From IMG/VR virus record IMGVR_UViG_2740892028_000003: a DNA stretch of 8,398 nucleotides. One strand, written 5' to 3'. Under the pieces are notes generated by a model. That model was not told the DNA's origin. It made no database searches and saw only the letters and a list, made by a program, of their open reading frames with translations. Origin of the DNA: a virus. Taxonomy: Duplodnaviria; Heunggongvirae; Uroviricota; Caudoviricetes. Positions 290 to 8,398 of this stretch are shown one piece after another. Both the position numbers and the translations under genes were made by a program. The first letter of the stretch is position 1. The number at the start of each line of letters is the position of its first letter.

Positions 290-627
290 CAGATCACCAC
301 TTCGTCAAACTGACACGAAAAATCGGTATAGGTGATATGTTCTGTCGCTGACCACGTTCGACACACCACTCTGATTTTTCTGTTAATACCCGGCGGGCGC
401 CAAAAAAAAGATTTATAGCCTCCATGCCGAGCCAGAAACAGTTCAAATGAATTACGTTCATTCGCCTCAACCCTGAAATCACAGGTAAAAACACGCAGAG
501 AATGATTAAGTCCGTTTGGGCTTCGTTGTTCATAACCATCGCCAAATCTTACAGTTTTTATCGATGGCTTATTTTCTGTTTTCATTCCATCCTCTGGTAA
601 CCAGTAAAATTCTTCCGTATTAGCCAC
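289..627 (-). CDS. M: Minor tail protein M (lambda gpM-like), 112 aa, GTG start
   Basis: ORF-track frame 289..627. The start codon at 627-625 is GTG, preceded by GGAGGAA with ~6 nt spacing. The protein aligns colinearly with lambda gpM as I recall it (shared VRFGDGY.QR, GLN, HGG.KSF.W.PP, V.C..WS and a C-terminal F.EVV motif). It overlaps the tape measure stop by 8 nt and the L start by 1 nt. Confidence 0.88.
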
Positions 628-3600
628 TTAACATTCCTCCATCACGTCGCATATTTAACAGAGCGCCCTGCACCCGCTGATCAACCATCCCCATAAGTGC
701 TTTTATTGCCTGAGGACCAATCTCTCCATTCTGGCCGTCATTTTGAATAGTGATTTGGTATACAGGGGCATAAGTAATATCTCTGCCTCCATTACCACTT
801 TTACTATTAATAGCTCTGACACCAAGAGAACCATCGGAAGTTCGCGTTAATGGCATAATAGCTTCCGGTCCAGCCTCACCAAAAACACCAGCTCCTTTTG
901 CAAAAGCAAAAAATTGCGGGGAGTCATAAATACCGTTCGAATATGTACTCAATGACGGAGACTCATAAACACCGCCCTTTGCATTCGGAATAAATTTACT
1001 AATAGCACTCCCGATAGTTCCTAAAATACCCCCAGAAGAACTGTTACTAATGCTGTCGAAAATCCCAGTAATTGAAGCCTTTAATGCAATTCGGCTAAGA
1101 TCTGAAATCACGGAAGTAGCGAAAGAACGAAAATTTGCCTTGCCTGTCGTGACAAAATCACCTAGCGCATCGGTCATCCCATCAAACATCTGAGTCGTGG
1201 TTGATTTTATTTGCGCACCGATATCCTTAGTGTCATCCAGCCAGTTATTGAATCCCTGGGAGGCACCACTAATCCAGTCTCCTGCCTGAATATCGAGCTG
1301 CTCGTTTTTCTGGCTGACAATTTCTTTTTCTCGCTCCAGAGCATCATTCAGAGCCTGCATTTTCTCCTGAAAAACATGATTTGACATTCCACGGGATTTA
1401 TCTGCATAGTCACGTTCAAGTTGCAGACGCTGATTGTTATATTCACGTTCAATCCGCAGTAATTCCTGCTGGCGTTGCTGATTTTTATCGCCAACCCCAT
1501 AACCAGCAATCTGAATATCATACCCCTGCTGACGATTATCAATCGAAGCCTGCAATGAATCACGCCATGCGGCTATTTCGGCGGATTCTTTGATTAGCCT
1601 GTTATTTTTTTCAATCGCAACATTTTTCTCCATCAACGCGGTTATTTCTTCCCGGTGTAAGAGAAGCGATTTCTGATCCTGGGTTAATTTCGATGACGGT
1701 CGTGACTCCAGGTCGGCAATCTGCTGACGCCACTTAACCAGTTCCTGTTCAGAGGAACTTAATTTAACGGTCAATTCAGCTTGTGAACTTAGTAACGCAT
1801 TCTGTTGATTCAGATGATCAATCATTCGTTGGGCAGCATCATCCGAATAACCTTTCGCCTTTGGTTGCTTTGGATCTTTATAACGCTCATTTATTTGAGC
1901 GATAAGATTATTATATTCTTCCTTTGAATACTGATTCTTTAGCTTTTCCAGTTTTGCAAGTTCACTAGCTCTCTGCTGCTCCCGGGTCTGATATTGTTTT
2001 GAAAAAGCATCTGCTCTCTGTCTGAGTTCAATTCCTTCCTGTTGTCGCTTGTTGTAATCGTTTATTGATGAATTTAGTACGTCCTGAGCAATTTTTTCTG
2101 CTTGAAGTACGCCCAATTGCTGCTTTAATCGTGCCAGCTTTTTATTTTGAGCTCCGCCATCTCCAATGCCACCTAACCCGAAAACTCCGGGTCGGGTATT
2201 TTTTTCTATTTCATCAATTTGACGGAGAACATCTGAGATTTTTTGATCAAGGGAGGCCTCACGGCCAATATCCAGCATGGAATCCCATGCCCATTTTGCG
2301 GAGTCTGCGACAGCTTTCCATGCAGTCTCAAGATAACCAAGATTTTCTTTAATCTGGTTGGTGCGCTGGATCATTGAGGATGAGTATGCTTCTGTCGCAA
2401 TGCGGGCGGCCTCCTGCTGGTTCCCTTCATCCTGTAGCGCCTTAATCTGGTTATAAGTCGCAAGTGTCAGAAAATGGTACTGATCATTAAGTTTTGATAT
2501 AGCACTGACAGGATCCTTTGCAATTTCATTGAAGTCATTAACCAGTTGTTCGGTTGATATTCCTGTTACTTCGCTCGTTTTTACTATCGCTGTCGTCACT
2601 TGCTCCAGCGAACTGCTCGCTACCTTTCCCGAACGCACAAGCTGGTTTAATACTGCCGCCGCAGCGCCAGTTGTCGAATCAGCCGCATTCCCGGCACGTT
2701 GAGCTATATCGGCCAATTGCCCGCTGGTTGTCCCCAACTGATTTCCGGTAAGAATAAGAGATTTATTAAATTCGTCCTGCTCCTGAGAGCCTTTATAGTA
2801 AGCCAGCCCTAAGACGCCAACGGCTGCTGCGGCCAGGGTAAAAGGATTAATTAATCCCAGCACATAAGAACCTACACCTTTGATCGCCGGGCCAATCCCA
2901 CCGAACATATCTTTTAGCTGGCCGCCCTGCTGCATTAACACCATAAATGGCGACTGACCAGTGGACAACCCAACAACAATATCCGTCATTTGTGCAGGCA
3001 ACATGCGCATAGCAAAAGCCGTTTGTTTTGCCGACATTCCGGTTTTGCTTAATTGCGATTGAGTAACCTCAAGCTCACTCCGCATAGCACGAAGTTTTCC
3101 AGAAAGCTCCTCATACATTTCAGGAGAAAGCATCCCCTTAGCTTTTGCTTCATTGAGCTGTTTCTGTTGTTCTACCAGACGATTAAAAGCAGTTCCGACA
3201 GGATCAAGTTGAGCAATCAGACGTTGCAAAGCAGCAACCTGTTCATCATGTGCTTTTGCTGCTTCTCGCTCTGCCTGAGCCTCTCCGGTAAGCTCTCGCC
3301 GTGTTTCCTGTATTTTTCGGCTATAATTCTCAAACTGAGAACCATTTATTTTCCCGGATGCAAACGCAGCATTAAGTTCATCCTGCTGTTGTTCAAGATT
3401 TCTTAGCGCCGCAGCCAGAGGGTCGATCTTGTCCAGCATTCTTTGAAAGACCTGAGCCTGCGCTTCCTGCTGGGCGGCAGCAAGTTTTCCGGCCTTCTCG
3501 GCTTCTCTCTGCGCTTGCGCAACCCCGCTCAATTCCTCTGTGGTTTCATTAAGTTTACGGACAAGAAATTCATATTCTTCTTTATCAATAAGCCCTTTAT

Positions 3601-3853
3601 CGAAAAATTTCTTTAATTCAGAATAGCGTCGACCGACAGTATCAATTGCGGCACCAACTGGATCAATAGCTGCTTTTAATTTTGCGAGCGCGTTCTTCTC
3701 ATCTTCTGTTGCCTTAGTCACTTTCCCTGCGCTATTTGCAGCAGTTTCCCCAGCCTGCGTCATTTTGACTAATGAGGAGGCCAGATTGTCAGCATTATTT
3801 TTCGCTCCAGTGCTATCAATAATTATTGCGAGACGCGAGGTTTGCTCTGCCAT
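620..3853 (-). CDS. H: Tail tape measure protein (lambda gpH-like), 1077 aa
   Basis: Largest ORF in the window, ATG at 3853-3851 preceded by an in-frame TGA and by AGGAG ~9 nt upstream. It sits between the chaperone and gpM homologues. It shares with lambda gpH, as I recall it, the MAE N-terminus, the [10 protein letters not shown]...GQSP...LQQGGQ.KD.FGG block and the C-terminal NDG.NG.IGP.A.KA....MRDGG block. The N-terminal third is Ala/Glu/Gln/Lys-rich coiled-coil-like sequence, typical of tape measure proteins. Confidence 0.95.
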
Positions 3854-3870
3854 TCATTAAAACTCCTGAC

Positions 3871-3896
3871 AACAAAAAACCCACCGAAGTGGGTTT
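3871..3896 (-). terminator. Rho-independent terminator-like hairpin just upstream of the tape measure RBS
   Basis: On the minus (mRNA-sense) strand: 5'-AAACCCAC-UUCG-GUGGGUUU-3' (3896..3877), a perfect 8-bp stem with a C(UUCG)G tetraloop, running straight into a U-rich tract (UUUGUUGU, 3876..3869). The tape measure SD (AGGAG) and ATG follow within ~20 nt. Confidence 0.55.
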
Positions 3897-4016
3897 CAGG
3901 CGACATAATAGTAGATATAGCGATTACGAGGCCACGCAATGCTTTTCTCCAGGAGCATCATCGATTTAATTAAAGACACCATCACATCTCTGTAACAGAG
4001 TGTACGTAATTAACAA

Positions 4017-4786
4017 CTACACACACTGCTCCTGAAAATACTGGTCATCCAGTGCAAAGATCACTGCTTCAAATTCATCGCGCTCAATCAATACCGGATG
4101 AGTGGCTAAATATTCATTTATCTCTGTCAGAGATAAAGGCAAAGGCACCCCAGTCATTCCAGCATAACGTCGGGCACGGGATATTACCGAATAGGCGTAC
4201 AACAATTCCTTAAGCACCGGGTCTATTTCTGGTTCCGGTATCGGTGGCAACCTGAGTTTTTCTCGCTTCCATCTTGCCTTTTCACCCTTTTCTCCCCCGA
4301 ACTCCGATAACCACCGCTGGGCGGCTATGGCTTTTTTATCGTATCCTGCTTCTGCTGCTCTTTACCCTGGGCGATGCTGGCTGCTTCTGCAAGGATCTGC
4401 CAGTACAACTCCGGATTCTGCTTAAGCAGCGCGATCCCTCGTTCTGGCGTATATTCCAGTGCAACCTCAACACCATCAACCAGTTCACCAACCCCTTTCC
4501 AGTCTTTCAGCAGATAACGAGCAGCATTATCAATGAGTAAATCATCAACAGAATCCACCTCGGAAACCTTTGCAATATCAAACTCCTTCGTTCCGACGTG
4601 CAAACTGGCATCCATTTTCTCAATGTGGCGACGGATTAATGCATTACGGGAGCGATACTGATCGTTATCGCTGCTTGCCACCAACAGTTTTAACCCGTCT
4701 ACAGGTTTTAAGTCCTTCATTGGGGTAAACCAGCGTTCACCACCGATGATAATTTTCTGATTAAGAATAAACATCCATAACCTCAT
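4017..4786 (-). CDS. Tail assembly chaperone GT fusion, predicted product of a programmed -1 frameshift at 4337..4331 (G frame 4786..4331, then -1 frame to the stop at 4019..4017)
   Basis: The -1 frame is open with no stop from the slippery heptamer through to the stop at 4019-4017, reading ...DTIKK/AIAAQRWLSEFGGEKGEKARWKREKLRLPPIPEPEIDPVLKELLYAYSV...QEQCV. The track's 4017..4250 ORF is the tail of this frame, reported from an internal TTG. A G/GT pair immediately upstream of the tape measure gene is the conserved siphovirus arrangement. Confidence 0.7.
4325..4786 (-). CDS. Tail assembly chaperone (lambda gpG analogue), 153 aa; a second ATG at 4774 with a better-spaced GAGG may be the true start (149 aa)
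   Basis: ORF-track frame 4325..4786, assigned by position between the major tail protein and tape measure genes. It is acidic and ends two codons after an A_AAA_AAG slippery heptamer. ATG 4774-4772 is preceded by GAGG with 6-7 nt spacing; ATG 4786 is preceded by GGGGGG at ~8 nt. Confidence 0.78.
   Translation of the reverse strand: MRLWMFILNQKIIIGGERWFTPMKDLKPVDGLKLLVASSDNDQYRSRNALIRRHIEKMDASLHVGTKEFDIAKVSEVDSVDDLLIDNAARYLLKDWKGVGELVDGVEVALEYTPERGIALLKQNPELYWQILAEAASIAQGKEQQKQDTIKKP
4331..4337 (-). other. -1 ribosomal frameshift slippery heptamer A_AAA_AAG (recoding signal)
   Basis: Minus-strand codons ATA AAA AAG CCA TAG: the heptamer A-AAA-AAG sits in the zero frame (X_XXY_YYZ) two codons before the G stop. 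The + strand shows it as CTTTTTT at 4331..4337. Confidence 0.7.
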
Positions 4787-7375: not shown

Positions 7376-7600
7376 TTACTCCTGAGTTTTCCAGCCCAGA
7401 GCCTTCCAGTTGTCAACTTCATCAGGATGAACATTAGCGATAGTTGGTGCGCCGGGAAACATCTGATAATCGGTCACCATAACCACTAACTCAATTTGCG
7501 TTTTTTGTGGCTCCTGAATTTGCTCCACATTTTGCTCCACCACTGCATTTTTTTGCGCGGCTTCACGCTGTGCTCTTTGCTCTTTAGTTAATCCGGCCAT
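7376..7600 (-). CDS. Small hypothetical protein, 74 aa, function unknown
   Basis: ORF-track frame 7376..7600. The ATG at 7600 is preceded by GGAGGG 3 nt upstream and lies directly downstream of the hairpin terminator. Gln/Glu-rich N-terminal half. No family recognised. Confidence 0.55.
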   Translation of the reverse strand: MAGLTKEQRAQREAAQKNAVVEQNVEQIQEPQKTQIELVVMVTDYQMFPGAPTIANVHPDEVDNWKALGWKTQE

Positions 7601-7642: not shown

Positions 7643-8263
7643 TTAACCAAGAATCAGACAACCATGTGCCGGTTTCACTGACGAAACACCCCATGCCAGT
7701 CCAACTTCATAGCGCACCTGGCGATACTGACGATACAGTGCAATCTGGAACGTAATCCCTGAAATCGGGTCCGTAACATTCATTACATCATCAGCATTAT
7801 CGCCACCTTCCGGCATTGCCGGAGTACGGGATGCCAGCAGAAACGCGTTGCGATCAAACGCCATATTTGCAGTAAAGGAGCCAACAACTGTGATTGCAGT
7901 ATCATCGGCCAGATCCTGACGCAGTCCCGGTGCTGCAAGAGTAATCAGATTGCTGGTCGCTGCTGCCACAACATACTGATTAGGATCGCCAGCGAACGTA
8001 ACAATCTGACCTGCAGAAATACTCCCCGAACCAGTATCAATGGAAATAAGAACATCGCCTTCTTTTTTCTCGCCATTCACGAGATAACCAGTTGCAGCAA
8101 CCTTTGGCGCTCGTTTTACACCTGCCGAACTGTGAATATTGAATCCCTCCAGACGCCCCAACACGCCCTCACGCAGTAGCTGTTCAGTGCCGGATTCATT
8201 CACTTTAAACAATACAGACTGTTTTCCGCGCAAATTAGCAATGGCAGTGGAACCAAGCACCAT
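7643..8263 (-). CDS. Phage structural protein of uncertain identity, 206 aa, in the position normally occupied by the major capsid gene
   Basis: ORF-track frame 7643..8263. Gly/Ser/Thr/Val/Ala-rich, beta-type composition. It is followed by a hairpin terminator, as is common after highly expressed capsid genes. No clear SD precedes the ATG at 8263, and at 206 aa it is smaller than typical HK97-fold capsid proteins. Confidence 0.6.
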   Translation of the reverse strand: MVLGSTAIANLRGKQSVLFKVNESGTEQLLREGVLGRLEGFNIHSSAGVKRAPKVAATGYLVNGEKKEGDVLISIDTGSGSISAGQIVTFAGDPNQYVVAAATSNLITLAAPGLRQDLADDTAITVVGSFTANMAFDRNAFLLASRTPAMPEGGDNADDVMNVTDPISGITFQIALYRQYRQVRYEVGLAWGVSSVKPAHGCLILG

Positions 8264-8398
8264 CTGCAGATCTGTTGTCGGTGCGCCGTTATCCTCCAGA
8301 ACCTGACGAGCCAGAGCAGCATCAGAAAGATCATTGAACCGCCCCGGAAATCCTGGAGACTAAACTCCCTGAGAAAGAGGTAAACAGGATGACTAAAA

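Follow-up and report, generated by a model that had tools for sequence, protein, structure and literature searches.

What occupies the 163 nt that separate the tail assembly chaperone gene from the tape measure gene in this phage DNA, and how did the segment come to lie there? The window, meaning the whole 8,398-nt stretch that was analyzed, carries all of its long ORFs on the minus strand, and together they make up a lambdoid head-tail module with genes for a tail terminator, a tail tube (Phage_tube_2), a 153-aa ORF, a 1077-aa tape measure protein and a gpM-like minor tail protein. It is the tail module of a Rac-type lambdoid E. coli prophage, with 100% identity to E. coli 2009C-3133 and 98-99% identity to Rac-type phages and prophages. 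The first-pass annotation took the interval between the two genes for a moron or the remnant of one, and offered transcript attenuation or 3′ message stabilization by its hairpin as the alternative.

Gene layout and contents of the gap

The 153-aa ORF (4325-4786, minus strand) lies between the Phage_tube_2 gene and the tape measure gene. It is labelled YdaY in related phage records and is the full-length form of K-12 ydaY. This G part has no Pfam match. The codons at its 3′ end read ...ACG AUA AAA AAG CCA UAG and contain the −1 slippery heptamer A_AAA_AAG (4331-4337) of a G/GT programmed frameshift. The −1 reading frame, open over 4361-4017, begins upstream of the G stop (4327-4325), and this T frame (4017-4361, minus strand) supplies the C-terminal part of the GT fusion, including the stop TAG at 4019-4017. 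The T part matches Phage_TAC_18 weakly (E = 7.5e-4; 20 bits, under the 27-bit gathering cut-off) and has 319 relatives in IMG/VR. Overlapping ORFs in the tube-to-tape-measure interval that are joined by a −1 slippery heptamer are the layout of G and GT, and the ORF at 4325-4786 together with the T frame is a lambda-type G/GT chaperone pair. Public records enter the G and T parts as separate hypothetical proteins or leave them without annotation; in K-12 the T frame is not annotated and ydaY is named 'putative uncharacterized'.

Recognition of the G/GT pair means that the gene assignments of the first-pass annotation were correct. The gap is flanked on one side by a GT chaperone gene whose frameshift site can be read, and on the other by the tape measure gene (620-3853, minus strand), whose 1077-aa product matches TMP_2 (E = 5e-82), Tape_meas_lam_C (2e-25) and TMP_4 (2e-24). 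This gene is the intact form of K-12 ynaA/tmpR. Its Shine-Dalgarno sequence, CAGGAG (3863-3868), lies 9 nt ahead of the ATG, and the GGAG is invariant across the family alignment.

The interval from the GT stop to the tape measure ATG at 3853 measures exactly 163 nt (3854-4016, minus strand), and the elements that had been described in it are all present: two palindromes, TTTAATTAAA at 3965-3974 and CTCTGT-N-ACAGAG at 3988-4000, a 28-codon ORF without a Shine-Dalgarno sequence, and a hairpin with a U-tract on the strand of the late genes. The gap had also been called AT-rich, which holds in direction but is mild in degree. Its GC content is 0.399 compared with 0.445 and 0.46 in the flanks and 0.466 in the window, which places it at the 6.5th percentile of 163-nt windows. 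The joint occurrence of both palindromes within 163 nt has p ~0.04, and the number of 10-nt palindromes in the window equals expectation. A reading of CTGT-N-ACAG as a LexA box was rejected because the spacing is wrong, as judged against what we take to be the LexA-box requirement. A repeat search detected an imperfect inverted repeat of 48 nt (3966-4013) that encloses both palindromes; its 14-nt arms are 79% complementary, its RNA has a folding energy of −11.7 kcal/mol (z = −2.0), and 8 of 200 shuffled sequences fold at least as stably. The repeat is marginal. The middle segment of the gap is unstructured (z = 0.1), and the RNA fold of the whole gap has z = −3.2. A scan of 3500-4400 against Rfam 15 returned chance-level matches only. 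The best of these, isrB (18.9 bits against a cut-off of 35; E = 0.87) and rsmX (17 bits against a cut-off of 56), are both anchored on the terminator. Among the features of the gap, the terminator alone is clearly above chance.

The definition of a moron calls for a protein-coding gene, and the sole ORF in the gap is the 28-codon frame (3896-3982, minus strand; ATG at 3982, TGA at 3898-3896) that encodes MVSLIKSMMLLEKSIAWPRNRYIYYYVA. It is intact in most loci, K-12 included, and the HK97 moron at the same site likewise encodes a small protein (62 aa). We nevertheless regard it as very unlikely that this ORF, or a 21-codon version internal to it, makes a small protein from the prophage. Neither ATG is preceded by a Shine-Dalgarno sequence, and in 8 of 65 sampled loci the ATG of the 28-codon frame is lost through two different substitutions that leave ATA or ATT. 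The peptide is not hydrophobic, a Pfam search returned no match for it, and the K-12 reference NC_000913.3, which is curated with many small proteins, has nothing annotated between ydaY and ynaA. A scan for sigma-70-like promoters called none on the sense strand of the gap. The same scan misses one upstream of the Ail/Lom-like gene in relative L070 and is thus insensitive, so its blank in the gap carries little weight. The ORF is unsupported as a gene.

The terminator at the chaperone/tape measure junction

The hairpin GAAACCCAC-UUCG-GUGGGUUUU occupies 3897-3876 on the minus strand and is followed by UUGUUGU. Its 9-bp stem contains four G-C pairs, and the first four U of the U-rich tract UUUUUUGUUGU (3869-3879) also close the stem. 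Stem, UUCG loop and the tract after it are those of a Rho-independent terminator, and the hairpin was called as such by a terminator scan. It folds at −12.5 kcal/mol, and none of 200 shuffled sequences folded as well. The stem ends 22 nt ahead of the tape measure ATG, and the Shine-Dalgarno sequence follows directly after the terminator.

Relatives of the junction were collected by scanning IMG/VR with the T protein and its 70%-identical homologue. This yielded 160 loci, and the T stop and the tape measure ATG were placed in 153 of them (85 unique junctions). The junction ranges in length from 38 nt to 2.4 kb and falls into three classes: 14 loci are cargo-free at 38-39 nt, 64 measure 163-165 nt, and cargo is present in the other 75.

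A hairpin followed by a T-tract directly before the Shine-Dalgarno sequence was found in all 58 distinct junction ends, with a mean folding energy of −13.5 kcal/mol. A junction end is defined here as the last 62 nt ahead of the tape measure ATG, and the cargo-free junctions of 38-39 nt are included in the 58. The order of elements at these ends is hairpin, T-tract, (G/A)CCCGGAG or CAGGAG, and ATG, and the T-tract is invariant across the family alignment. Under a strict search for perfect stems, 45 ends pass, and the stem ends 20-27 nt before the ATG. These contain 34 distinct perfect stems with two to four pair types per position; pairing is 100%, compared with 66% when arms are swapped between hairpins. 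Pairs were counted on loop-anchored hairpins, and a MAFFT alignment of the junction ends was set aside because it misaligned the stems. What the counts establish is that every junction end retains a hairpin, not that one element co-varies, and the hairpins may have several ancestors.

The particular C(UUCG)G form named by the first-pass annotation is present in the window, but the tetraloop is not conserved across loci. UUCGCG takes its place in 34 of the 65 sampled loci, K-12 among them, and refolds as a 10-bp stem with a UCGC loop. Variants that weaken the hairpin (GTGGT, GGGC) occur in about 14 of the 65 window-type loci, and constraint on the window-type copy may be relaxed.

The cargo-free junction of 38-39 nt consists of little beyond the terminator, GCCCGG-CAUGU-CCGGGU plus AUUUUUAU. 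In 17 unique cargo junctions (L104, L106, L107, L109, L111, L112, L114, L123, L125, L126, L129, L131-L134, L136 and L139) there is one terminator directly after the T stop and a second before the tape measure gene, and the first of the two is homologous to the terminator of the cargo-free junction. A further locus, L127, has two tandem terminators ahead of the tape measure gene (3437-3458 and 3480-3501). Cargo seems to have been added beside a pre-existing terminator, bringing or duplicating another.

AT-rich DNA with a terminator on the late-gene strand, inserted between two conserved genes, had been read as the signature of a moron or its remnant. The terminator part of that argument fails because the cargo-free junctions have a terminator at the same position: the gap does contain a terminator, but it cannot be assigned to a moron, since every class of junction has one. 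In the phage family as a whole, the terminator is part of the backbone and is not moron-borne.

The window holds a second terminator-like hairpin on the minus strand, GGGGC-UUCG-GCCCC plus AUUUUU at 7632-7619, directly 3′ of the major capsid gene (stop near 7643) and ahead of the next ORF (start at 7600). This placement, behind the structural gene with the most abundant product, is consistent with a late operon under antitermination read-through. The K-12 Term-seq tables consulted list no 3′ end at 1,4262xx-1,4265xx, which is uninformative because the Rac late genes are silent there.

The cargo slot and the 119-nt filler

The chaperone/tape measure junction is a site of gene cargo in the relatives of the window. 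Cargo junctions measure 450-2400 nt and hold one to three genes. Clustering of their ORFs of 90 aa or more gave 32 groups, of which a few probably represent spurious antisense ORFs, and more than 25 unrelated gene families are found at the junction. The cargo that could be named includes an Ail/Lom beta-barrel porin (E = 2e-26), a Zn-ribbon membrane protein, KilA-N, FtsK-gamma and VasI-like proteins, and many other clusters have lipoprotein-like signal sequences as read from their translations. Three unrelated cargos (L083/L092 at 3453-3822, L094 and L099) encode proteins of about 120 aa that by eye share a weak lamin-tail-domain-like pattern (EYV.I.V....W....GD.I.L); the L083 protein, the only one of these that was scanned, matches Pfam LTD weakly and below the cut-off (E = 1.7e-4).

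Within L103-L163, a leader TCATATCATTGTC...GTGCAAATGTTAATGATGGGGATAGGGAT-GTG of about 68 nt after the T stop (for example at 2843-2910 in L127) is common to 31 unique cargo junctions, and the sequences diverge right at its GTG start codon into at least nine cargo layouts. The leader and the downstream terminator look like a fixed expression slot with exchangeable ORFs. The shared leader on one side of the cargo slot, and the shared terminator and ribosome-binding site on the other, would make the junction well suited to the insertion of genes into phages of this type, with tail assembly left intact. With more than 25 cargo families between conserved flanks, the junction is also a convenient place to mine prophages for accessory genes, among them surface proteins, lipoproteins and possible exclusion factors.

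Measured against relatives at 38-39 nt, the overlapping genes of lambda and the 19 nt of HK022, the gap is extra DNA between otherwise adjacent genes. The same gap is retained in the Rac prophage of K-12 between ydaY and ynaA. A literature search on ydaY, ynaA and tmpR found nothing that concerns this unannotated interval, which can now be described as a gene-less occupant of an archetypal moron slot. The first-pass reading as a moron or its remnant is thus borne out as to place, a moron slot that carries cargo in relatives, but not as to content, in which no gene or promoter is detectable and nothing points to a link with cargo.

Comparison of the junction across relatives, which the first-pass annotation had proposed, shows that the gap behaves as a discrete mosaic cassette. 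The window and the Ail/Lom-bearing relatives (L070-L074) cease to be homologous at 4035, six codons before the T stop, and are homologous again from 3882, which lies in the 3′ arm of the hairpin. These breakpoints delimit a cassette-specific segment (3883-4034, minus strand) that consists of the last six T codons, a 119-nt filler (3898-4016, minus strand) and the 5′ arm of the hairpin, and relatives have different cargo at this position. The filler thus belongs to a discrete cassette. The same annotation had held that a spacer conserved throughout in close relatives would speak against the moron reading. The outcome is split: close relatives do keep the spacer, with high conservation, but more distant relatives replace it.

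The filler is read as non-coding, without a credible gene or a detectable promoter. Of 5426 complete E. coli genomes, 1046 carry the gap at 95% identity or more, in every case at the chaperone/tape measure junction. Distant blastn found it in only ten of 50,697 phage records, all of Rac type, and in no other context in either the phage records or the E. coli genomes. A gap-specific 24-mer was detected in genome contigs of Escherichia (including E. ruysiae) and Shigella, plus one metagenome-assembled genome (MAG). The MAG match is exact over 24 nt (CTCCTGGAGAAAAGCATTGCGTGG) at 5923-5946 of L165, a contig labelled 'uncultured delta proteobacterium', and lies inside an ORF that is queG-like by eye; both copies encode LLEKSIAW and their flanks are unrelated. 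By our own estimate about 0.004 such matches are expected by chance in 596 Gb. The match is treated as a coincidence, though an odd one.

Could the filler be what is left of a moron after its gene was deleted? Under this reading, the 119 nt would combine part of a leader and part of a trailer with the element's own terminator, following loss of the ORF from a promoter-gene-terminator cassette. The site is a proven moron slot, and sharp breaks in homology set the segment off as a discrete cassette. It is also mildly AT-rich like cargo (GC 0.40, with cargo at 0.38-0.51), and its AT-rich palindromes are of the type found in the leader regions of cargo. Against this origin, blastn and tblastx of the filler with all other junction cargos matched the terminator and U-tract only. 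In 68 IMG/VR contigs, the spacing between the filler halves is invariably 79 nt, and a longer version is absent from the 5426 E. coli genomes, the 50,697 phage records and IMG/VR, so that no undeleted ancestor is on record. The terminator, for its part, can be explained without a moron, since cargo-free junctions have one. We consider this origin doubtful and the term 'remnant' unproven.

Nucleotide diversity in the filler is ~0.005, about tenfold lower than at synonymous sites, with values of 0.05-0.07 at flanking third codon positions, and on this count the filler could be functional. Among 43 window-type haplotypes, however, the region of low diversity is a valley that runs from 4126 to 3887 (π = 0.002-0.007, compared with 0.03-0.10 on either side) and spans the last ~110 nt of T as well as the filler, ending within the terminator. 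Low diversity was rejected as proof of filler function because the valley reaches into the T coding sequence. On the sequence comparisons, the valley is read as the recent common ancestry of a shared recombination module rather than as constraint.

The filler and terminator might also act as RNA, either as a small RNA derived from the 3′-UTR or as a cis element that throttles translation of the tape measure gene. Such a role would account for a near-invariant filler in about a fifth of E. coli genomes. CUCCUG at 3955-3950 is predicted to pair with the tape measure Shine-Dalgarno CAGGAG (3868-3863) across the terminator, and both the MFE and the centroid fold of the gap pair GCUCCUGG with UCAGGAGU and enclose the terminator. 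Three of the five variable sites of the filler map by our own placement to predicted loops of this fold, and an A/U-rich stretch precedes the terminator, an arrangement that we take to resemble an Hfq-binding module. However, the sub-fold that contains the anti-Shine-Dalgarno pairing is no better than shuffles (z = −1.4), and the middle segment is structureless. The Shine-Dalgarno variants CUGGAG and AAGGAG occur without a compensating change in the anti-Shine-Dalgarno sequence, substitutions are too few for covariation, and the Rfam matches, with E ~1, rest on the terminator. A low-diversity valley that enters the T coding sequence is what recent common ancestry predicts. We judge a small RNA or throttling element of this kind to be improbable, and we hold out equally little hope for a conserved phage regulatory RNA, be it an sRNA from the chaperone message or a cis anti-Shine-Dalgarno that sets tape measure dosage.

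A third possible origin is a transposon-like insertion of a 166-nt element into an abutting T/tape measure junction, with duplication of TT(T/G)TCAGGAG (4038-4029 and 3872-3863). The cassette is bracketed by this 10-nt direct repeat, whose copies on the minus strand are TTTTCAGGAG at 4029-4038 and TTGTCAGGAG at 3863-3872 (9 of 10 identical); the right copy contains the tape measure Shine-Dalgarno sequence. Removal of the insert and one copy in silico leaves a lambda-like junction, ...TTTCAGGAGTTTTAATGAATG, with the T stop 4 nt before the tape measure ATG. By our own estimate, however, about one such repeat is expected by chance per 300 nt. IMG/VR contains no exact match to the predicted empty site, and the best 25 of 1069 matching E. 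coli records all align in two pieces that span 366 nt, with no single-piece empty site. Terminal inverted repeats are not apparent by eye, and there are no other copies in the phage records or E. coli genomes. A mobile-element origin is very improbable, and the transposon-like and small-protein readings are both weak.

Proposed function and comparison with known systems

The account that we consider probable is that the gap represents the classic moron slot in its Rac-type form, in which a gene-less 119-nt cassette filler is followed by the family-wide terminator, and the terminator insulates tape measure transcription or attenuates it. As a slot without a recognizable gene, the gap is an unremarkable example of a feature type that is already known. 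On this account, the filler and the last six T codons were acquired as one cassette, either newly or by exchange.

In a lysogen, the terminator would halt RNA polymerase that starts at constitutive promoters upstream, such as those of slot cargo in relatives or of trkG in the late operon, so that polymerase would not enter the tape measure or tail-tip genes. In the lytic cycle, Q-modified polymerase would be expected, by analogy with lambda, to read through the hairpin, which would then at most attenuate transcription or protect the 3′ end of the head-tube-chaperone message. Either effect would favor the abundant tube and chaperone proteins over the tape measure protein, of which there are few copies per tail. 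Attenuation or 3′ stabilization, the alternative raised by the first-pass annotation, fits the family-wide conservation of the hairpin, and we infer the effect itself, as we do termination in vivo, Q read-through and any influence on stoichiometry.

In lambda, Q-modified late transcription passes intrinsic terminators, whereas unmodified polymerase stops at them. In vB_EcoS-666R9, an intact relative, a gene annotated as antitermination protein Q precedes the lysis genes, trkG and the head-tail genes. Taken together with the second terminator at 7632-7619, the lambda analogy and the Q gene of this relative lead us to favor insulation in the lysogen as the role of the terminator. In L169 (ON470614.1), an intact Rac-type phage, trkG, which encodes a potassium transporter, is located within the late operon at 19290-20765, with lysis genes on one side and a ParB-like gene and the terminase on the other. 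trkG is further cargo, whose read-through in the lysogen downstream terminators would block. A counterpoint to the need for a terminator is that HK022 and lambda do without one at this junction.

Lambda T/H and HK022 gp14/gp16 share the gene order of the window and a chaperone made by −1 frameshifting. Lambda had been cited as a case in which the two genes abut; there is indeed no gap, but T and H overlap by 8 nt, and the junction has no terminator. HK022 differs from the window in having a 19-nt gap without a hairpin or terminator. The terminators of Q-antiterminated lambdoid late operons resemble that of the window in their GC-rich stem, tetraloop and U-tract on the late-gene strand, and the expectation that Q would read through the window terminator comes from lambda biology only. 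The Rac-type tail modules L070-L163 have homologous T and tape measure genes and the same order of hairpin, T-tract, Shine-Dalgarno sequence and ATG. They differ in what precedes the hairpin, since their junctions are either terminator-only at 38-39 nt or gene-bearing at 450-2400 nt, whereas the window has its unique 119-nt filler.

HK97 is a precedent for the slot. [quoted passage not shown] The literature assigns superinfection exclusion to the gene 15 product and describes the gene as having a promoter of its own. In the HK97 record, gp15 occupies 8203-8391 (62 aa), an annotated terminator lies at 8398-8422, and the tape measure gene starts at 8435. Juhala/Hendrix 2000 and Cumby et al. 2012 are reportedly the sources on this moron. 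A 62-aa gene with a described promoter sets HK97 apart from the window, which has no credible gene and no detectable promoter. The two share a slot between the chaperone frameshift pair and the tape measure gene, with a same-strand terminator just before the latter. The HK97 terminator, ACCCGCT-ATCA-AGCGGGT plus U8, is located 12 nt ahead of the tape measure ATG, and its stem falls in the AACCCGC/GCGGGTT group that is also present in the Rac-type junction family.
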